Part shown: piece after piece, positions 22,125 to 39,415 of the stretch
Numbering within the stretch: the first letter of the stretch is position 1
Layout of the letters: the number at the start of each line of letters is the position of its first letter
IMG/VR virus record: IMGVR_UViG_3300010970_000087
Length of the DNA stretch: 57,247 nt
Reading direction: 5' to 3' (one strand)
From: a virus
Position numbers and translations under genes: made by a program
The notes under the pieces: model-generated
The model's database searches: none
Told to the model about the DNA's origin: nothing
The model's input: the letters and a program-made list of their open reading frames with translations, nothing else

Positions 22125-23840
22125 TCAATGCGTCTGTTTCCAGTTGTCACCAACCTTACCTTCAGCATTCACAGGACAGCGAAACTTAAGAGCTTCTCCT
22201 GCTTTGGTTGCTGCTTGCTCGATGAGCTTTGCTGCTTCCTCTGCCTGATCTTCTCTCACTTCCCACTGTGTTTCGTCATGAACGAACGCTAATAGTTTAG
22301 CATCTATTCCCTGTTCTTGCAACAACTTTGTTGATTCAACAAGCCATTGTTTAGCAATGATAGCACCTGCACTTTGTAACAAAGTGTTTAGTGCAGCATG
22401 CTCAGATCTAACCCACACTCGCCTACCATCCAAGGCAGGGAGATGTCCCTTCGCCATGAACTTAGATATCTTCTTCTTCAGGGTAGAAAGTCCGGGCGTA
22501 TTATTGATAAAACTATCAATAAGTTTCTTGCCTTTGCTGCTGTTACCACCCACAATGCTACCCGCCTTGGCTGCACCTGCACCATACAACACCCCATATG
22601 TCAGGGTTTTGGTGGTGTTTCTAGCCTTCTTATGCTCAGGATTGTTATCGTCCTTGACAGTACCTTTTTCCACCAAGCCAAAGCTCTGTGCATTAAACCA
22701 ATGGATGTCACCCTTCAGCAACTCATCCATCCATTCTTGGTCATTCAGATAGTGACCTAAGCAGCGAAGCTCAATGCCTGATAGGTCAACACCTACCTGC
22801 TTGTACCCCTTAGGCACACGCCACATCTCCCTGCATTCAGCACCGAAGGGGCTACCCACCGCAGGAACTTGTGCCATGTTAGGACTACTGTGTGTGGCTC
22901 TGCCTGTCACTGCTCCATTAGTAGTAACCCTACCATGCACCCTACCATCATCACCCACTAGATCAAGCCAACTACTTATCTGAGCTACACGCTTTTGTAT
23001 CATTAAGTATTCAGCAATTATTTGTCCCTCTGGGAACACAACACCTTTCAAGGTGTCCTCATCCACAATGGGCTGACCCGTTGGGGTCATCTTAGTTGGC
23101 TTCCATCCTAGCTTCATAAGGCGGTCACCAATTTGCTGCCTACTTCCGGGATTGAAGATGGTAATCTTGTCCTTCAAGCGCTTGCCTGTCTTCTCAGAAA
23201 TGCGTTCCTCTACGATGGGAGGAAACACCTTCTGCATTTCCTCTTCAATGTCAGACATGCGTCCACTCAATGTTGCATTAAGCACCATAGCTTTCTCAAT
23301 GTCTAACATGAATCCATTGTTCTCCATGCCACGGCAGATCAGTGCCACCTCATGTTCAAGCTGAATGCTTTGTAGGGAAAACCCTTCCTTCACCATCACT
23401 GTACTTAGGTGATTATAAACCTTCTCAAGCAGCAACACATCCTGCTCACAATAGGTAGCCATCTCTTGTGACCATCCACTGTCGAAGTCAGTGAAGCCAA
23501 TCTTGTTATCACCTAAACGATAGCCCCATGCCTCTAGGCTATGTGGTGTTGGTGCTTTGCCCGACACAGGTACGACAATATCAATGTCGGGCTTGTACAG
23601 GCGTGACATAACCAATGTATCTACAAGCTTGTTGTCAGGAATGACAACACCCCAAACCTTCTTAAGAACAGGTGCATCAAAGCCAATGATGTTATGGCCC
23701 ACCACTTGCTCACCCTCTAAGTATTGCTGCAAGGTGTCGGCTTCCCGCCAGTGCCTTACCTCACCAGTGGTGTTGTGCTTGGTTACACACAGCCAAATGG
23801 TGTCATGTTTCAGGTTTGTCTCTATGTCTAAGAAGATCAT
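22125..23840 (-). CDS. DNA polymerase, family A (3'-5' exo plus pol domains, no 5' nuclease domain)
   Basis: Exo motifs MIFLDIETN, VGHNIIGFD and YCEQDV. Pol motif A is VDLSGIELR, motif B is RNTTKTLTYGVLYGAG and motif C is FVHDETQ. Start is one of the ATGs at 23840-23879. Confidence 0.9.
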   Translation of the reverse strand: MIFLDIETNLKHDTIWLCVTKHNTTGEVRHWREADTLQQYLEGEQVVGHNIIGFDAPVLKKVWGVVIPDNKLVDTLVMSRLYKPDIDIVVPVSGKAPTPHSLEAWGYRLGDNKIGFTDFDSGWSQEMATYCEQDVLLLEKVYNHLSTVMVKEGFSLQSIQLEHEVALICRGMENNGFMLDIEKAMVLNATLSGRMSDIEEEMQKVFPPIVEERISEKTGKRLKDKITIFNPGSRQQIGDRLMKLGWKPTKMTPTGQPIVDEDTLKGVVFPEGQIIAEYLMIQKRVAQISSWLDLVGDDGRVHGRVTTNGAVTGRATHSSPNMAQVPAVGSPFGAECREMWRVPKGYKQVGVDLSGIELRCLGHYLNDQEWMDELLKGDIHWFNAQSFGLVEKGTVKDDNNPEHKKARNTTKTLTYGVLYGAGAAKAGSIVGGNSSKGKKLIDSFINNTPGLSTLKKKISKFMAKGHLPALDGRRVWVRSEHAALNTLLQSAGAIIAKQWLVESTKLLQEQGIDAKLLAFVHDETQWEVREDQAEEAAKLIEQAATKAGEALKFRCPVNAEGKVGDNWKQTH

Positions 23841-24003
23841 CGTCATTGTCCTTATCATTTTGTCGGAGGTTATCAACATCTACCGACTGTTTGTAATCTT
23901 CTACTGAGTCTTTACCAAAGATGGCATTCCATCTTGATGCCCACTCCTCATCAGCTATTGATTTGGGACGCTGAGTGTGTCCCTTACCACCATCACTCGT
24001 CAT
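23803..24003 (-). CDS. Hypothetical protein (66 aa)
   Basis: ORF overlapping the polymerase start region; acidic C-terminus. Confidence 0.5.
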   Translation of the reverse strand: MTSDGGKGHTQRPKSIADEEWASRWNAIFGKDSVEDYKQSVDVDNLRQNDKDNDDDLLRHRDKPET

Positions 24004-24760: not shown

Positions 24761-26374
24761 TTACAACATATTATTGTCACTCATATAATTTTCTACCTCA
24801 ACTAGGCGGTTAATGTTCTTATCAAAGTACAGAGCACCTGCGGGTCCTGTCTCTCCCGTAAAGCGTGACTTCAGGAGGCGAAGCTCAGTGGTGTTGCGCC
24901 TCATCTCATCATCATCCTGCTGATCACGCTGTAAGCCAATGACTGCATCTGACAACTGGCTAATGCCTTGAGTACCTCGTAATGAAGAGAGACTAATCTC
25001 AGCCCCATTCTCAAGCCCCTGTCCTTGTTGTCTACGAGTGTGTGAGATACCAAACAAACCTACGCCTGTCTCTTCAACAAAGGTACGCAGCTTAGTCAAT
25101 AACATATCTAAGCCCTTACGCTCATCAGTATCCATACCAGACAAGATCATTTGATAATGATCCAAGATGATCCATTGGCAGTTCTGTCCTTTCACCATGT
25201 AGCGTAGGCGATTAAGGACATTGTCAATATCAAGCGAGCCAAAGTGATTGAACAACACACAGCGACCAGTGCCCATCGTACTGTCATAGCATTTCTTTAG
25301 TTCATCCTCTGTATATTCCACATGAGGAAGATGTAAAGGTTTCCCTGCTTCGATAGACATAATACCTAAGGCTGTACGCTCAGGAGATTCTTCTAAGAAA
25401 GCCATACCAATATTGTCATTGGTTGTCATGAGCAAGTGGTGGATAAGCTGTCTTAAGAATGTAGATTTACCCTGCCCAGTTCCTGCTGCAATGGTAATAA
25501 GCTCACGCTTGCGTAGACCTGCCATCATCTCATTCAGTTTGGCATACGGCCATGAAGCGTCAGGAAGTTGCTTAGGCTTCTTCAATTGTTCCCACAAGTC
25601 AGCACCATTAATAATGCCATCTGGTTTGTAGGGTTCAGCAGCCCACCATCTAGAAACAAAGGCAGCTTCCTTGCCTTCAGCAAGCCACTCGCATGCATCC
25701 TTGTATGCAGGGTCTGGTTTAAATATCTTGCACTTGCTGCCAAACAATTCAGCAACTTCCTTCGCTGCCTTCTGTCCTGCCTCATCACCATCAAAGCACA
25801 GCACAATGTTTTCAAAGCTGTTGATATATTCGTAATGGGCTTTGGCATCCTTCAATGCACTACCTGCACCTGTGCGAATAGACACCACAGGATATTTACT
25901 TCCTGTCAATTGGTATGCAGCCAGTGCATCAAACTCACCTTCAGTGATGGTGAGGTATTTGCCATTGGAGGGGTATAGGTTCTGTCCAAACAGTGTGCCT
26001 TTGCTCCATCCACCTACGGTAGTAAATTTCTTGTCCTTCACTTCCCTACGCTTAGCTGCAACAAGCTGTGAGTTGCTGTCGTAATAAGGAAAGAAATAAT
26101 AACCACCACTACGGACAACACCATAGCGTTCCATTGTGGTTTTGTTAATGCGTCTATCAGCTACAGAAACACTGTAGCCTTCGTTGTATTCCTTCAGGAA
26201 AGAGCTTGTGTCCTTACTGTCTGTATCAATATCAATCACTTCAAGTCTTTCATTGTTCGTTGATGGGATGTATGTATTACATACAAAACATTTGGTGGAC
26301 ATGTCATCATTGATGGACAAGCCATCACTACTTCCACATGTCTCACAAGGTTGATGTGTTTTTAGGAAAGTCAT
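24761..26374 (-). CDS. Bifunctional primase-helicase (T7 gp4-like)
   Basis: Zn finger CETCGS...CFVCNT, TOPRIM motifs ITEGEFDALAA and DGDEAGQKAA, Walker A AAGTGQGKST, and a DnaB-type C-terminal half. Confidence 0.9.
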   Translation of the reverse strand: MTFLKTHQPCETCGSSDGLSINDDMSTKCFVCNTYIPSTNNERLEVIDIDTDSKDTSSFLKEYNEGYSVSVADRRINKTTMERYGVVRSGGYYFFPYYDSNSQLVAAKRREVKDKKFTTVGGWSKGTLFGQNLYPSNGKYLTITEGEFDALAAYQLTGSKYPVVSIRTGAGSALKDAKAHYEYINSFENIVLCFDGDEAGQKAAKEVAELFGSKCKIFKPDPAYKDACEWLAEGKEAAFVSRWWAAEPYKPDGIINGADLWEQLKKPKQLPDASWPYAKLNEMMAGLRKRELITIAAGTGQGKSTFLRQLIHHLLMTTNDNIGMAFLEESPERTALGIMSIEAGKPLHLPHVEYTEDELKKCYDSTMGTGRCVLFNHFGSLDIDNVLNRLRYMVKGQNCQWIILDHYQMILSGMDTDERKGLDMLLTKLRTFVEETGVGLFGISHTRRQQGQGLENGAEISLSSLRGTQGISQLSDAVIGLQRDQQDDDEMRRNTTELRLLKSRFTGETGPAGALYFDKNINRLVEVENYMSDNNML

Positions 26375-27759: not shown

Positions 27760-28031
27760 TTGTTAATCTCCACATTCATTGGTTTAAATTCCTCAATCAC
27801 TCTTACAAGAGAGGTGATGAGGTGTTGATCTTGATCGTGCTTAAGTTCATAACTGAGTAGCCACTCAAGCTGCTCAAGCACCACTGCCTCTTGTTCCATC
27901 TGATTCAACTGCATAGGTTTCTCCTTTATAAGTCTAGCTACCATATCCATCTTAGTGCAATAGCTTTTTATCCAAGCCTTGTCACTGTCTCTATCGTACA
28001 CTTGTCTACATTTAGAACATCTGTATCTCAT
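27756..28031 (-). CDS. Hypothetical protein (91 aa) with N-terminal Cys cluster
   Basis: RCSKCRQ...YC; ATGA overlap with the integrase stop. Confidence 0.55.
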   Translation of the reverse strand: MRYRCSKCRQVYDRDSDKAWIKSYCTKMDMVARLIKEKPMQLNQMEQEAVVLEQLEWLLSYELKHDQDQHLITSLVRVIEEFKPMNVEINK

Positions 28032-29131
28032 ATAAGTTCCCTCATGTCCTGAGCCACTGTCGCACTACGCAAGGTGTTCTTGATGTAGGGCGTTAGGCTT
28101 TGTGGTGTGGCATGTCCTGACACTGACATGATGTTGGTGATAGGTACACCCACCTCAATCATCTCAGTGATTGCTGTCCTTCGCAAGTCTTGCAACACTA
28201 AGTCACTAGGCAAAGCAGCCTCAGTCATAATTTGTTTAGCAACCCTAGACAAATTGAACAGGCTGTAAGGCATCAAGCCACCCTTCCTATCAGGAACATT
28301 AGATGGTGCAATGTATTGTTGCCACCCAAACTCAGCATGTTGTTGTCTCAACATGGTGAGCAAGCCTTGGCTTGTCGGTATAGTCACCCTAGACCTACGC
28401 TTGCTTTGTTCCAAGTGCAACACACCCTTGTCTAGGTCTACTTGATCCCATCTAAGCTTACGCATATCCCCCATACGCTGTCCATATTCATAAGCCATCT
28501 GAACTATCAGCCCTACATTGCGCCATTTGAATGTGCTGTAGGCTGTGTTCATGAAGGCTCTGACATCTTCCCTAGTCCACACTGTTCTTCGTGGCTTGTC
28601 TGCCCTGCGAAGCACCTTGCTGAAGGGATTGTGGGTGATGTAGCCATGACGAATAGCGAAGTTGAATAACAAACGATAGACAGCTAGGGTGTGGTTAGCT
28701 AGGCTAACACTGTGCTCAGCATGTTCCTCATATATCTTCTGACAATGCGGAGTGACTAAGTCTCCTAGCTTGCATTGATACAGAGGCACACCATTAGCTT
28801 TGCTGTCTTGCCATCCTTGCAAGTAATACATGTAGTCACGCTGTGCCTTTATACTAAGTTTGGTATAAGTGATGTTGTTCTTATACGCTTTGATTAGTTC
28901 ATGCACCTTCGTCTTCTCAGAGATATCTTTTAGATATCTAAGTTCTTTACGCCAGTTGTCTAGCATGGCATTAAGTTCTTCAGCTAAGGCAAAGGCTTTG
29001 CTTTTGTCAGTGCCAAGCACACGCCTAGCCACCACCCCTGCATCCACTGCATCCTGTGGTGGGTTGTACCTGTACTTTGTTATGCCTTCGGCAGCCTTCG
29101 CCAAGGTGACATATCTAGGTAGCTTACTCAT
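28028..29131 (-). CDS. int: Tyrosine recombinase / phage integrase
   Basis: C-terminal catalytic pattern MGDMRKLRW..., LQDLRRTAITEM, SGHATPQSLTPYIKN (R...H-x-x-R...H...Y); SAM-like N-terminal half. Confidence 0.85.
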   Translation of the reverse strand: MSKLPRYVTLAKAAEGITKYRYNPPQDAVDAGVVARRVLGTDKSKAFALAEELNAMLDNWRKELRYLKDISEKTKVHELIKAYKNNITYTKLSIKAQRDYMYYLQGWQDSKANGVPLYQCKLGDLVTPHCQKIYEEHAEHSVSLANHTLAVYRLLFNFAIRHGYITHNPFSKVLRRADKPRRTVWTREDVRAFMNTAYSTFKWRNVGLIVQMAYEYGQRMGDMRKLRWDQVDLDKGVLHLEQSKRRSRVTIPTSQGLLTMLRQQHAEFGWQQYIAPSNVPDRKGGLMPYSLFNLSRVAKQIMTEAALPSDLVLQDLRRTAITEMIEVGVPITNIMSVSGHATPQSLTPYIKNTLRSATVAQDMRELI

Positions 29132-36967: not shown

Positions 36968-37660
36968 TTACACAACAAAACCAGTGGTATCAAGCTTCGC
37001 TTTACCTTTGGCATACAAACCGACAATGACTTTGTCATCAAGGTGACGAACATCTGAGTTGTCTCCAGAGACAACAGGAATTCCCATAAATGTCTGAGGA
37101 ATATCTTGTTCCTTACGGAACACTACAGCAATTCTCATTTGCTTTTTCAAAGCCTTGGCAACAAAAGGCTGAAAGCCTTCGACACCGGAATAGCTGAATG
37201 TCAAATCATAGTTGGCAGGTAAATCTTTACGATTTACATCTTTGGTGTAATCGTAGAATTGAACATCGGGAAACATCTGAAAGATGTTCTTTTTGGTGTA
37301 GCTCACCTCGATGGTTTCCCATCGAATGTCACTTGTACCATTCAATCTAACTAACGGAGTTAGACCGAGCTTTTTAGCCTTAGCGACAAGCTTTTTAATA
37401 TCTTCAGCAAGCTGAAGCATGAAGCTTTCAGTGCTGTCAAAAAACCATTCGGTTTTACGAATCCTAGCCAATTGAACGGAGTTCATAGCACCTCGTCCTG
37501 CTGTATACAAACAAGCCTTGTCACACTGAGCAACCTTAGCCATTGAACAAGTGTTCCACTTGGTAGTGGTAGCCGGAGCAAGGTATAAAATACCTGTCAA
37601 AAATCCAAGGCTTTCACCTTTGGTGGTTTTGGCATCGGTGGAGACGGACAACAATTTCAT
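36968..37660 (-). CDS. GP88-family protein (conserved phage protein, function unknown)
   Basis: 230 aa. The pattern KGE-x-LG-x-LTGILYLAP...C...C...AGRG...VRLNGTSDI-x-WE...FYDYTK...NYDLTFS...VVF...GDNSDVRHLD...GLYAKGKAK is as recalled for Pfam GP88. Confidence 0.6.
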   Translation of the reverse strand: MKLLSVSTDAKTTKGESLGFLTGILYLAPATTTKWNTCSMAKVAQCDKACLYTAGRGAMNSVQLARIRKTEWFFDSTESFMLQLAEDIKKLVAKAKKLGLTPLVRLNGTSDIRWETIEVSYTKKNIFQMFPDVQFYDYTKDVNRKDLPANYDLTFSYSGVEGFQPFVAKALKKQMRIAVVFRKEQDIPQTFMGIPVVSGDNSDVRHLDDKVIVGLYAKGKAKLDTTGFVV

Positions 37661-37737: not shown

Positions 37738-37983
37738 TCACAGGGCTTTTCTAGAACCTACAAGGGTTTTACCCTTGAACAACAAGGCTTCATCATAACA
37801 ACCCATCCATTGCAATGCCTCAGCTTTGCTGAGAGTGAAGTGGCTTTTCTTAAAACCAACACCAACAACACGATAGCCGAAGGCTTTGCACAAAGCCAAT
37901 TTAATTTGGTCTTCCCAAAGGAGAACCAAGCCAGTAGTGCTAAGCACTATAGTAGTCAAGCTGAGAATGTCGAGAGTTGTCAT
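37738..37983 (-). CDS. First gene of the minus-strand arm, 81-aa protein with N-terminal TM segment
   Basis: LSLTTIVLSTTGLVLLW; AAGGAAC SD. Confidence 0.6.
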   Translation of the reverse strand: MTTLDILSLTTIVLSTTGLVLLWEDQIKLALCKAFGYRVVGVGFKKSHFTLSKAEALQWMGCYDEALLFKGKTLVGSRKAL

Positions 37984-37993
37984 TTTGTTCCTT

Positions 37994-38080
37994 CATGTCT
38001 TTCATTTAACTTAAGAGAAAAAGTATTTCCCTTTCTCATACTGATGAAAGGGATACTTTTTCTGTTAAATGAAAGACATG
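37994..38080. repeat. 87-nt near-perfect palindrome
   Basis: Outer arms catgtctttcatttaac (37994-38010) and gttaaatgaaagacatg (38064-38080) are perfect. Inner arms agaaaaagtatttccctttc / gaaagggatactttttct differ by one extra T. Confidence 0.9.
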
Positions 38081-38103
38081 GGTTTACGCATACATATGCA
38101 GAT

Positions 38104-38173
38104 CTTTGTATTTTTAAACAAAAGAAGATGCCAACATAGTTGTCATATCTTTTGTGTATATAAAAATACAAAG
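38104..38173. repeat. AT-rich 13-bp inverted repeat pair (ctttgtattttta / taaaaatacaaag)
   Basis: 38104-38116 and 38161-38173 are exact reverse complements and flank an AT-rich segment. Confidence 0.85.
38105..38134 (-). promoter_or_regulatory. Weak sigma70-like promoter candidate (TTGGCA-N18-TACAAA) facing the early arm
   Basis: Minus-strand TTGGCA at 38134-38129 and TACAAA at 38110-38105. Confidence 0.25.
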
Positions 38174-38184
38174 TGACTAGGGAG

Positions 38185-38250
38185 TTATCCACAAGTTGTC
38201 ATTGAGCCATACCGTTATGCTGTGGATATCGTTAGGTTTGCTGTGGATAA
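38185..38250. promoter_or_regulatory. Cluster of three DnaA-box matches
   Basis: TTATCCACA at 38185-38193 (perfect), TGTGGATAT at 38221-38229 (8/9, inverted) and TGTGGATAA at 38242-38250 (perfect, inverted). The last two sit in a direct repeat GCTGTGGATA. Confidence 0.6.
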
Positions 38251-38378
38251 CTTAGCATTGGGATATGGTAATGACGGGGTATATTTGCTTAAAAATTAAG
38301 CAAGATGGGGTAGGGTTTAAAAAGGGTTGATTTATATACCACCTAGGGTATGTCTCGATGTTGCTTAAAAAATAGGCA

Positions 38379-38406
38379 ATTATTTTCAGTTTTTCAACAT
38401 TGTCAA
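38379..38406 (-). promoter_or_regulatory. Sigma70-like promoter candidate (TTGACA-N16-AATAAT) facing the early arm
   Basis: Minus-strand TTGACA at 38406-38401, with AATAAT/ATAATT about 16-17 nt downstream; immediately adjacent to the TTGAAT palindromes. Confidence 0.3.
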
Positions 38407-38412
38407 CCGATT

Positions 38413-38486
38413 TTGAATCAGTATTCAAGATCTTCTAAGTCTTTGAATTCATTGAAGAATCTTTTCTTTGAGTTGAATGCATTCAA
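38413..38486. promoter_or_regulatory. Three phased operator-like palindromes with half-site TTGAAT
   Basis: TTGAATcagtATTCAA at 38413-38428, TTGAATtcATTgAA at 38443-38456 and TTGAATGCATTCAA at 38473-38486; centres are 29 and 30 nt apart. Confidence 0.55.
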
Positions 38487-38500
38487 GATCTTTGATTCAC

Positions 38501-38524
38501 TCGCATGTCGCATCGCATGTCGCA
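38501..38524. repeat. Perfect tandem duplication of a 12-mer (tcgcatgtcgca x2)
   Basis: Read directly; followed by a GC-rich island to about 38590. Confidence 0.9.
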
Positions 38525-38940
38525 GGGCTGCACCGAGGTGAGCGTGGCTGTAGCGAGGGCGGGCGTGGGCACAGGGGGGTATGGCGCTATCTGTATATGG
38601 CCTCGTACAAAAATCAGGAAAAATAGACTTGTTAACCAAGGCTGGTTTACAGCAGCGCCCACACACCTCTAAAACAATTAGGGACAGATCAACTATGACA
38701 ATTTGCACTGTTCTGTGCACATAGATGTGTACACGCTAGTATAGAAACTGTTCAGTATGTTGAACAAATAAGAACAGTTCTCATTGAAGTTTCATGCAAC
38801 TTGATACTTAAAAGTGCTAACTAGATACTTAAACAACAACCTATAGGTATTGCCTATTGTCAGTAGGTTAAGAAGACACCCCCATATGGACCAATCGTCT
38901 AGGGAGGTACAACATATTTGAAGCTTTCTAAAAGAAAAGC

Positions 38941-38968
38941 TTGACATTGTTTTTAATGTGTGTAAAAC
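38941..38968 (+). promoter_or_regulatory. Sigma70-like promoter candidate (TTGACA-N16-TAAAAC)
   Basis: Perfect -35 at 38941-38946 and -10 TAAAAC at 38963-38968; preceded by the hairpin AAGCTTT-N8-AAAGCTT. Confidence 0.35.
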
Positions 38969-39283
38969 TACCAGTACCTGCACCATGTATGCTTTAGACA
39001 TACAGGCGATACGAAGAAAAAGTATAGGCTACCTTCCGGCTACGGGTAAAGAAATGAGCTTGCAATCGGCTGCTGAAGAGAAAAGACTCGGAGAGAATGA
39101 CATAGGGGCCACTGTGTTGTTCTTGCTCTGAATACTGGCAGTGGTAACACCTTACACTGACCAGACTAGACTTGATGTGGGTACTTGTTAAAAGCTGTTG
39201 CTAAAAGGGTGGGCTAACAACAGCCATAGATGAACACATCCCTTATGGGCTTTCTAGGTGTATGTTCTAGATATTAGGTATAG

Positions 39284-39311
39284 TTGGTTGTATTTCACTA
39301 TGTGATATAAA
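39284..39311 (+). promoter_or_regulatory. Sigma70-like promoter candidate (TTGGTT-N16-TGaTATAAA) for the late arm
   Basis: -35 at 39284-39289 and TG-extended -10 TATAAA at 39306-39311, about 105 nt upstream of ATG 39416. Confidence 0.4.
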
Positions 39312-39415
39312 CAGTCAACAACACTTATAGACATACATTGGGATAGGTTGTTATGTGTAGCAATAAATGCTACCATACCACCTTAGCTAGGCTATGTGTG
39401 TTAGCATAAAGCATT

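Follow-up and report, generated by a model that had tools for sequence, protein, structure and literature searches.

Plasmid and phage-plasmid origins such as P1 oriR, F oriS, pSC101 and RK2 oriV have an AT-rich segment bordered by high-affinity DnaA boxes, which are accessory to an element-specific core. The initiator sites of herpes simplex oriS/oriL and of RSF1010 oriV (ssiA/ssiB hairpins) lie beside an AT-rich palindrome or hairpins, which are thought to offer a non-B structure for entry of the replisome or primase. The closest published precedent for the element considered here, judging from its sequence features, is a DnaA-box and palindrome region of phage T5. This Repeat Region 3 (the injection-stop-signal region) is 1.2 kb long and untranslated, and holds conserved DnaA boxes among inverted repeats and palindromes; 25 T5-like phages share the arrangement, TTATCAACA is the commonest box variant and the T5 origins lie elsewhere (bioRxiv 10.1101/866236). 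An untested proposal is that DnaA bound to the membrane keeps hold of the DNA as it enters (bioRxiv 10.1101/866236). This study concerns an element of related composition in IMG/VR virus record IMGVR_UViG_3300010970_000087, a phage sequence of 57,247 nt analysed at its full length (the window): an array of three DnaA boxes placed beside two long palindromes, H1 and H2, within a 1.4-kb untranslated region (37984-39415) between divergent early and late gene blocks. Combined, the results point to a real and selected module that is predicted to recruit host DnaA and that is kin to the known T5-type and plasmid-type uses of DnaA boxes. The module comprises the following elements, with coordinates of the window and with the strand where one applies.

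37994-38080: H1, an 87-nt near-perfect palindrome, seen as inverted repeats, in the predicted fold and in compensatory changes in helices 1-3
38088-38099: small GC hairpin GCAT-ACAT-ATGC, 12 nt, between H1 and H2, with a compensatory change in one of two pairs
38101-38104: GATC inside the conserved motif CGCAGATC, at the left edge of H2, from the alignment
38104-38173: H2, a 70-nt near-perfect palindrome, 76% AT, with a 13-bp inverted repeat as its outer arms, seen in the fold and in covariation
38185-38193, plus strand: DnaA box A, TTATCCACA, a 9/9 match, at a fixed 11 nt from H2; column identity 0.96, with only position 3 varying (A/G)
38221-38229, minus strand: DnaA box B, ATATCCACA, an 8/9 match, 36 nt start-to-start from box A; column identity 0.93
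38242-38250, minus strand: DnaA box C, TTATCCACA on the minus strand, a 9/9 match with the conserved flank TGTGGATAACTT; column identity 0.99

A preliminary description of this locus had reported the exact consensus at 38185-38193 (TTATCCACA, plus strand) and, as its complement TGTGGATAA, at 38242-38250, together with an 8/9 match (TGTGGATAT) at 38221-38229, a direct repeat TGCTGTGGATA at 38218-38228 and 38239-38249 (21 nt apart) and a perfect 13-bp inverted repeat at 38104-38116 and 38161-38173; all of these were recovered. The AT-rich segment that it placed about 10 nt from the boxes is indeed close, with H2 ending 11 nt before box A, but the 13-bp repeat is merely the outer part of the 70-nt palindrome. 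The boxes are separated by gaps of 27 bp (A-B) and 12 bp (B-C). Box matches with at most one mismatch are not enriched genome-wide (22 found vs. 16.9 ± 4.2 expected), but the local cluster is rare: three matches within 70 nt turned up in only 4 of 1000 genomes simulated by a first-order Markov model of the whole stretch.

Conservation across relatives is a stronger argument for the boxes than these chance statistics, and the DnaA-box element is both real and selected. IMG/VR was scanned with the neighbouring 230-aa GP88-family protein, which gave 54 related loci at 61-100% protein identity, and a DnaA-box cluster occupies the homologous place in approximately 38 of the 45 loci containing H2. 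The column identities listed above for boxes A, B and C are means over 30 distinct sequences of standard geometry, in which spacers and flanks reach 0.61-0.71. The geometry is fixed: 11 nt separate H2 from box A, 27 nt box A from box B and 12-13 nt box B from box C, and up to two more boxes follow; of 36 distinct sequences, 30 have boxes A and B 36 nt apart start-to-start, and box C stands 21-22 nt from box B across relatives. Where the boxes vary, box A alternates between TTATCCACA and TTGTCCACA alone and box B for the most part between TGTGGATAA and TGTTGATAA, and the only variants tolerated, TTGTCCACA and TTATCAACA, are both also found among the T5 boxes. Many relatives gain one or two boxes on the right, in the orientation of B and C, and box number grows by tandem duplication, as seen from a perfect 21-bp unit present three times in contig L027 (L numbers designate contigs throughout).

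Conserved islands with strict helical phasing have the look of a cooperative protein-binding array. Because these islands are exact copies of the DnaA consensus, host DnaA is the obvious ligand, and the 9-mers are very probably its binding sites. A host whose DnaA recognises a different box, which the preliminary description had named as a reason to abandon the assignment, is unlikely because TTATCCACA is the DnaA-box consensus used for most bacteria (PMC8287927) and because the best isolate match of GP88, a Limnohabitans (betaproteobacterium) phage with 64% identity, has five perfect TTATCCACA boxes. Scans aimed at the host gave no candidate: a GP88 scan of genome contigs gave no match, and a scan with the large terminase (TerL) matched only phage contigs binned into metagenome-assembled genomes of six unrelated phyla, the module being absent from those contigs.

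The two palindromes are supported by fold and covariation alike. The DNA fold of H1 and H2 has an energy of -50.3 kcal/mol (z = -11.3), and across 22 distinct sequences 98% of the cells of the consensus structure are paired, compared with 43-56% when the partners are slid by 1-3 columns. Compensatory double changes affect 33 of the 61 pairs in the H1 and H2 alignment, and the observed values were reached in 0 of 500 shuffles. Helices 5 and 6 of H2 are 100% paired, with 16 of 26 pairs covarying and one G-U in approximately 570 cells. RNA hairpins that switch from A-U to G-C normally pass through G-U intermediates; since these are nearly absent, both strands of H2 must stay complementary, and H2 is best read as a DNA-level palindrome, whether as a cruciform, as hairpins on both strands or as a symmetric protein site. 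H1 and H2 share strong covariation and an almost exclusive use of Watson-Crick pairs, and both are therefore likely to function as DNA and not as RNA. Two parts never vary, namely the base of H1 (CATGTCTTTCATTTAA/TTAAATGAAAGACATG), below a covarying inner stem, and the apex of H2 (GATGCCAAC..GTTGTCAT); this invariance suggests sequence-specific recognition. The unpaired apex of H1 spans approximately 11 nt in the consensus fold and 3 nt in the fold of the window itself, and the centre of H2 is odd (3 nt). GATC, found at the left edge of H2, is rarer than expected genome-wide (141 found vs. approximately 214 expected). In every relative H1 lies directly upstream of whichever gene opens the early operon, and in some its 3' arm overlaps the likely ribosome-binding site.

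Several other identities were considered for these palindromes. RNA leader hairpins (RNase III sites, put-like antiterminators) are disfavoured for H2 by the essential lack of G-U pairs; an RNA leader role stays conceivable for H1, which lies directly before the first gene. No Rfam family reached the gathering threshold anywhere in the window, and the miRNA-type generic hairpin matches on H1 were far below it. Back-to-back sigma-70 promoters were rejected for H2: -35-like hexamers at the apex (TTGTCA/TTGGCA) are conserved, but the -10 positions covary as stem pairs and are unconserved. A protelomerase target (telRL) was also rejected, the centres not being dyad-symmetric and a protelomerase gene being absent, as was a reading as attP, given that no attP-like tRNA fragment occurs anywhere in the 57,247 nt and that the integrase is 9 kb distant; a repressor gene was likewise not detected.

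Spacing to the right of H2 is also held constant. In an alignment of 29 relatives, a GATTTTGAATCAGT block stands approximately 326 nt from H2 in those with three boxes and in those with five alike, the additional boxes substituting for a palindrome and leaving the region no longer. This constant distance points to a spatial constraint, for example looping or wrapping. The content between H2 and the GATTTTGAATCAGT block is exchanged among relatives while the length of approximately 326 nt is kept.

The genome in which the module lies is a circularised assembly whose ends are not mapped physical termini. Bases 1-304 are identical to 56944-57247, an overlap of 304 bp that corresponds to a genome of approximately 56.9 kb and that falls within a tail-fibre gene. 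Plus-strand genes begin at about 38.7 kb, continue over the junction and end at 15078; among them are those for terminase, portal, major head protein and tail fibres; minus-strand genes run from 37983 down to 15061. Families were assigned by PHROGs and Pfam scans of approximately 60 open reading frames, and four genes of the minus-strand block are given here.

22125-23879, minus strand: family-A DNA polymerase (PHROGs and Pfam scans)
24761-26374, minus strand: T7-type primase-helicase (PHROGs and Pfam scans)
28028-29131, minus strand: tyrosine integrase of 367 aa, the only tyrosine recombinase present, 9 kb from the palindromes
37738-37983, minus strand: first gene of the leftward early operon, 81 aa, from the open reading frame list, with homologs in relatives and no Pfam match; its start codon is 10 nt from H1

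The same block encodes an exonuclease, thymidylate synthase and both ribonucleotide reductase subunits, and scanning the 42 smaller open reading frames added a gp2.5-like single-stranded DNA-binding protein, endonuclease VII and HNH nucleases. The replisome is T7-like by its gp4-, gp5- and gp2.5-like proteins. No Rep-type initiator, DnaA-like domain or helix-turn-helix initiator or repressor was found in 42 small and 20 large open reading frames, and no phage RNA polymerase among the approximately 60 scanned. The earlier statement that the phage has its own primase-helicase and polymerase and no obvious initiator is borne out, and can be extended to the single-stranded DNA-binding protein and exonuclease that are present and the RNA polymerase that is not. 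A nucleotide search of isolate phages gave no near match to the genome. At 43% identity, the polymerase resembles that of Pelagibacter phage HTVC103P. Homologs of mycobacteriophage L5 gp88 and gp82 are found among the early genes, and these two also stand first on the map of Puniceispirillum phage HMO-2011. In this phage, with its T7-like replisome, the integrase gene sits inside the early/replication operon.

The single most likely function of the module, with a probability of roughly 0.4, is that of a DnaA-assisted origin at which H2 opens to load the phage primase-helicase. The array is phased on one helix face, with one box, 27 bp and then two to four boxes of opposite orientation 21-22 bp apart, and is anchored 11 bp from AT-rich H2 in the control region where the early and late blocks diverge. 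Host DnaA on the array would form a nucleoprotein complex that destabilises or extrudes H2, and the exposed single strands would allow the T7-like primase-helicase and polymerase to begin bidirectional replication. In this role the array would help, as a host-supplied auxiliary, to activate an origin whose structured core (H1/H2) is specific to the phage; it would resemble the DnaA-box help at plasmid and P1 origins and would not be a copy of bacterial oriC. What the sequences show directly is the set of sites with its conservation and spacing, together with palindromes that exist at the DNA level; from these we infer DnaA occupancy, opening of H2 and loading of the replisome. As at iteron-type origins, the boxes border an AT-rich segment, with box A 11 nt from the 76%-AT H2; and where bacterial unwinding modules have a DnaA box within two mismatches of TTATCCACA, the present module has two exact boxes and one with a single mismatch. 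In L066 and in Limnohabitans phage DC31, AT-rich tandem repeats directly adjoin DnaA-box arrays and occupy, relative to TTATCCACA, the side that H2 occupies here; both L066 and DC31 carry a GP88 homolog, and that of L066 closely matches the present one. In L066 (3155-3270), seven tandem copies of the AT-rich 16-mer ATGCTTATATATGAAT abut a six-box array, a layout that looks more origin-like than the present module.

A number of observations weigh against an origin. Initiation by T7-type replisomes classically relies on transcripts and not on DnaA. In E. coli the unwinding element is found 3' of R1, whereas H2 is 5' of box A TTATCCACA, with a 27-nt spacer of 48% GC on the 3' side, so that the proximal box faces the opposite way to R1 relative to the unwinding element. 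The basal unwinding system (BUS) of bacteria has DnaA-trios on the 3' side of a TTATCCACA box (PMC8287927); no such trios (at least three NAN, 0-16 bp 3' of TTATCCACA) occur at boxes A, B or C, and no tandem pair of boxes lies within 3 bp, the gaps being 27 and 12 bp. The comparable region of T5 is not an origin (bioRxiv 10.1101/866236). The module also differs from particular origin types, in that no Rep initiator gene of the iteron type adjoins the boxes (42 small and 20 large open reading frames) and no RNA polymerase gene was detected that could serve promoters upstream of an AT-rich region as at a T7-type primary origin. Among the relatives, the array of L027 lies approximately 200 nt from H2; the close relatives L005, L022, L051 and L039 keep H1/H2 and the gene neighbourhood and have no boxes; an initiator gene peculiar to these array-less relatives was looked for and none was found; and more distant relatives (TerL approximately 70% identical) are without the whole module. 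Because close relatives keep H1/H2 and the genes without the boxes, the array is an accessory rather than an indispensable origin, one grafted onto the phage-specific core formed by H1 and H2.

Two further expectations of the preliminary description bear on this point. A switch in GC skew does occur, with the cumulative minimum at 37916 and the maximum at 15255, but because both extremes coincide with the two switches in gene orientation, the skew is uninformative, fully confounded with gene orientation, and was rejected as evidence for an origin. The proposed unwinding element is among the seven most AT-rich 60-mers of the genome, but it lies on the side of box A opposite to that in E. coli and is not accompanied by DnaA-trios. 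The oriC-like interpretation is thus partly supported: conserved boxes, an AT-rich neighbour and no initiator stand for it, and the lack of trios and tandem boxes, the opposite orientation and the dispensability of the boxes in relatives stand against it.

Sequence alone cannot decide among starting replication, controlling early genes and handling incoming DNA. The second of these involves the remainder of the untranslated region, which contains the following features.

38285-38303: palindrome TTGCTTAAAAATTAAGCAA, operator-like; two extra DnaA boxes take this place in five-box relatives
38334-38343: motif (G)ATATACC(A/G)(C/A)C, an invariant block in the alignment of 29 relatives
38361-38379: second palindrome, TTGCTTAAAAAATAGGCAA; TATGCAAAAAAAGCATA stands here in other relatives
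38405-38497: highly conserved block with three TTGAAT..ATTCAA palindromes (38413-38428, 38443-38451 and 38473-38486), approximately 326 nt from H2

If DnaA acted here as a transcription factor or roadblock, in line with the control of the divergent promoters that the preliminary description offered as its alternative, the module would couple the early operon, and perhaps the choice between lysis and lysogeny, to host DnaA-ATP status, with H1 and H2 as separate leader or DNA elements. In E. coli DnaA is well established as a transcriptional repressor and activator and as a block to transcription that depends on orientation, and the array is well placed for such a role, lying between a promoter/operator part (38255-38500) and the first early gene and adjoining sigma-70-like matches and operator-like palindromes that swap specificity among relatives. 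It also comes and goes among relatives, as regulatory sites do, and arrays elsewhere in viral contigs are mostly intergenic, often between divergent genes, upstream of near-consensus promoters (L116, L064). However, promoters could not be placed with confidence: the 9 promoter-like matches do not exceed background (5.6 ± 2.7 expected) and lack conservation, the best of them being already lost in the relative nearest to this phage. Known DnaA-regulated promoters also carry less than the three to five phased, high-affinity boxes that stand here 11 nt from an AT-rich palindrome, and transcriptional control appears rather unlikely as the primary function.

Other observations in this part of the region concern regulation more generally. 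Directly next to the TTGCTTAAAAAATAGGCAA palindrome stands a sigma-70-like match on the minus strand (TTGACA-16-AATAAT, 38406 to 38379), the -10 element of which is unconserved among relatives. Replacement of the TTGCTTAAAAATTAAGCAA/TTGCTTAAAAAATAGGCAA pair by TATGCAAAAAAAGCATA or by extra DnaA boxes resembles immunity-specificity swapping; no repressor gene to accompany the operator-like palindromes was found in the open reading frame scans. The TTGAAT..ATTCAA palindromes, set in a nearly invariant non-coding block, are operator-like for some regulator. They are followed by a GC-rich island (38494-38600) in AT-rich surroundings, with a tandem TCGCATGTCGCA present twice and the invariant motif GGGCGTGGGC..GGGGGTATGGCGCTAT.TGTATA, and several IMG/VR contigs stop in poly-G within this island. 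A promoter-like TTGACA-16-TG-TAAAAC (38941-38968) precedes a segment with a 40-mer (about 39029-39068) that is exact in 40 viral contigs; the segment 38941-39131, which has no Rfam match, may encode a small protein of 57 aa (38958-39131, 87.5% identical in L002) or a non-coding RNA.

A T5-like role in DNA entry would have the boxes and palindromes, near the first-expressed genes, tether or pause the incoming genome on membrane-associated DnaA. T5-like phages carry the conserved boxes TGTTGATAA, TGGGGATAA and TGTGGATAACTT among inverted repeats and palindromes in their 1.2-kb untranslated region, and the same ingredients occur here in the order hairpins, boxes, several palindromes and GC-rich segment. 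A GP88-family gene is among the first genes in the deposited maps of HMO-2011, CRP-143 and RHEph21, and near the right end of the deposited maps of matching mycobacteriophages. On the other hand, the T5 model is itself a proposal (10.1101/866236), the T5 boxes are paired 3 bp apart in a single orientation, unlike those here, and the present stretch, being a circular assembly, has no defined genome ends. Several contigs do end nearby, at equivalents of about 38510-39100, with one end beside H1 and the ends in poly-G or adjacent to palindromes; a Logan contig begins 17 nt before the first early gene, at about the location of H1, and L007 ends in poly-G. The possibility that these contig ends mark physical termini of the genome was considered and rejected, since they have no terminal repeat and each falls within poly-G or next to a palindrome; they were treated as assembly breaks, for which the palindromes and poly-G account. 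An entry element is regarded as improbable.

The boxes might alternatively be iteron-like sites for a phage protein that resemble DnaA boxes, or a functionless relic of the lineage, and a repeat spacing of 21-22 bp is indeed typical of iterons, while other direct repeats occupy the same slot in some relatives (for example, TATACTGGTCAGTCTAGAT in L039 and L041). This explanation is quite improbable in view of a conserved core that is exactly the 9-mer DnaA consensus with a flank as at high-affinity E. coli sites, of spacers that diverge freely, of the same 9-mer arrays in unrelated phages with a host protein as the sole common factor, and of the open reading frame scans, which found no candidate DNA-binding initiator. 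A DnaA sink, by which the replicating phage would titrate DnaA like datA, stop host initiation and de-repress DnaA-controlled genes such as ribonucleotide reductase, could draw on arrays of up to 14 near-perfect boxes in other viral contigs and on variation in box number by duplication in this lineage, but is very improbable for a phage that has merely three boxes, encodes its own ribonucleotide reductase, and keeps a fixed distance to H2, strict spacing and fixed orientation that titration does not need.

Phased DnaA-box arrays appear to be common in viral contigs. The pattern TGTGGATAA-N12-13-TGTGGATAA occurs in at least 120 stretches of IMG/VR, compared with a chance expectation of roughly a handful (assuming approximately 5 x 10^10 bases in IMG/VR). 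At least four boxes lie within 300 nt in 63 of the 120 matches listed, many with 5-14 boxes and with 11- or 21-22-nt phasing, and among the matches listed the arrays are almost never inside open reading frames and often between divergent genes. A general link between arrays and long hairpins was rejected, as inverted boxes alone account for the signal. Limnohabitans phage DC31 (L175:3025-3142) has five perfect, convergent boxes in a repeat-rich intergenic region of 930 nt; these DnaA boxes are not mentioned in the paper describing that phage. Among 100 open reading frames flanking arrays, GP88 is the commonest Pfam family (7), and several terminase families recur. GP88 genes neighbour DnaA-box arrays in the otherwise unrelated contigs L097, L122, L066 and L175. 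In the present phage the GP88-family gene lies at 36968-37660 (minus strand), and the family has three invariant cysteines (C-x7-C-x3-C). Sequence and profile searches found no PDB relative of GP88, and its AlphaFold model (predicted local distance difference test score, pLDDT, 46) is too poor for a fold search.

The module therefore appears to exemplify a widespread and undescribed phage feature. How phages with a T7-like replisome and no RNA polymerase start replication is a gap that includes many abundant aquatic relatives of HMO-2011 and pelagiphages, and an array fixed to a structured AT-rich palindrome offers a testable start-site candidate, or a candidate switch that reads the host's replication state. 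It is possible, though doubtful, that host DnaA is the sole sequence-specific origin-recognition factor for a T7-type replisome and that phased arrays are widespread, essentially undescribed phage control elements. If so, an AT-rich, cruciform-forming palindrome acted on by DnaA would take over the part that the phage RNA polymerase and promoters play in T7, the start of phage replication or early development would be tied to the initiation status of the host, and array-bearing and array-less relatives would differ in their dependence on host DnaA. The presence and absence variants within one lineage provide natural controls for experiments.

Among known systems, bacterial oriC resembles the module in having consensus TTATCCACA boxes beside an AT-rich segment, whereas the present locus has no DnaA-trios, no tandem boxes within 3 bp, its AT-rich segment on the opposite side and no dnaA/dnaN context (PMC8287927). 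The T7 primary origin belongs to the same type of replisome and has an AT-rich element in a promoter-rich region, but is without DnaA boxes, and neither a phage RNA polymerase nor T7-type promoters were found here. The RNA-based origins of mycobacteriophages (PMC7157519) were set aside as a parallel because they are centrally located and not comparable. Herpes simplex oriS/oriL and RSF1010 oriV share the placement of initiator-binding repeats beside an AT-rich palindrome or hairpins; the analogy is one of function alone, the replicons and proteins being unrelated, and recognition of H1/H2 by the phage primase-helicase would be hypothetical. Origins of plasmids and phage-plasmids are closer, with DnaA boxes as a host-supplied accessory at the edge of an AT-rich segment, but they have an adjacent Rep gene and iterons, of which none were found here, and the AT-rich element of the present module is a long palindrome.

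The likeness to T5 is the most extensive. T5 and the present phage both have long untranslated regions with several conserved boxes, the variants TTATCAACA and TTATCCCCA and the flank TGTGGATAACTT, and both regions contain many palindromes or inverted repeats, a GC-rich segment and boxes without an associated initiator gene. Read directly, the T5 sequence runs TGGGGATAA-gtc-TGTTGATAA, 40 nt, TGTTGATAA-gtc-TGTGGATAACTT, then palindromes and a GC-rich stretch. The GC-rich stretch after the palindromes (9100-10500 segment) contains GCGTGGGCGTGTATG, which is reminiscent of GGGCGTGGGC..TGTATA and may be a coincidence. The two regions share no sequence homology. T5 boxes form 3-bp-spaced pairs of one orientation in 131-bp inverted repeats with a 52-bp spacer, an arrangement of paired boxes at long inverted-repeat edges that does not occur here; the present module has one box and two to four convergent ones, spacings of 36 and 21-22 bp and two long hairpins alongside. 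T5 also has defined terminal repeats and a two-step transfer, whereas the present stretch is known as a circular assembly. What the present region does share with T5 is conserved boxes in more than 1 kb of palindrome-rich untranslated DNA, here with H1, H2, two TTGCTTAAA-type and three TTGAAT-type palindromes. Taken with the arrays in other viral contigs, this suggests that the DnaA boxes of T5, known for long yet unexplained, represent one case of a general phage strategy.

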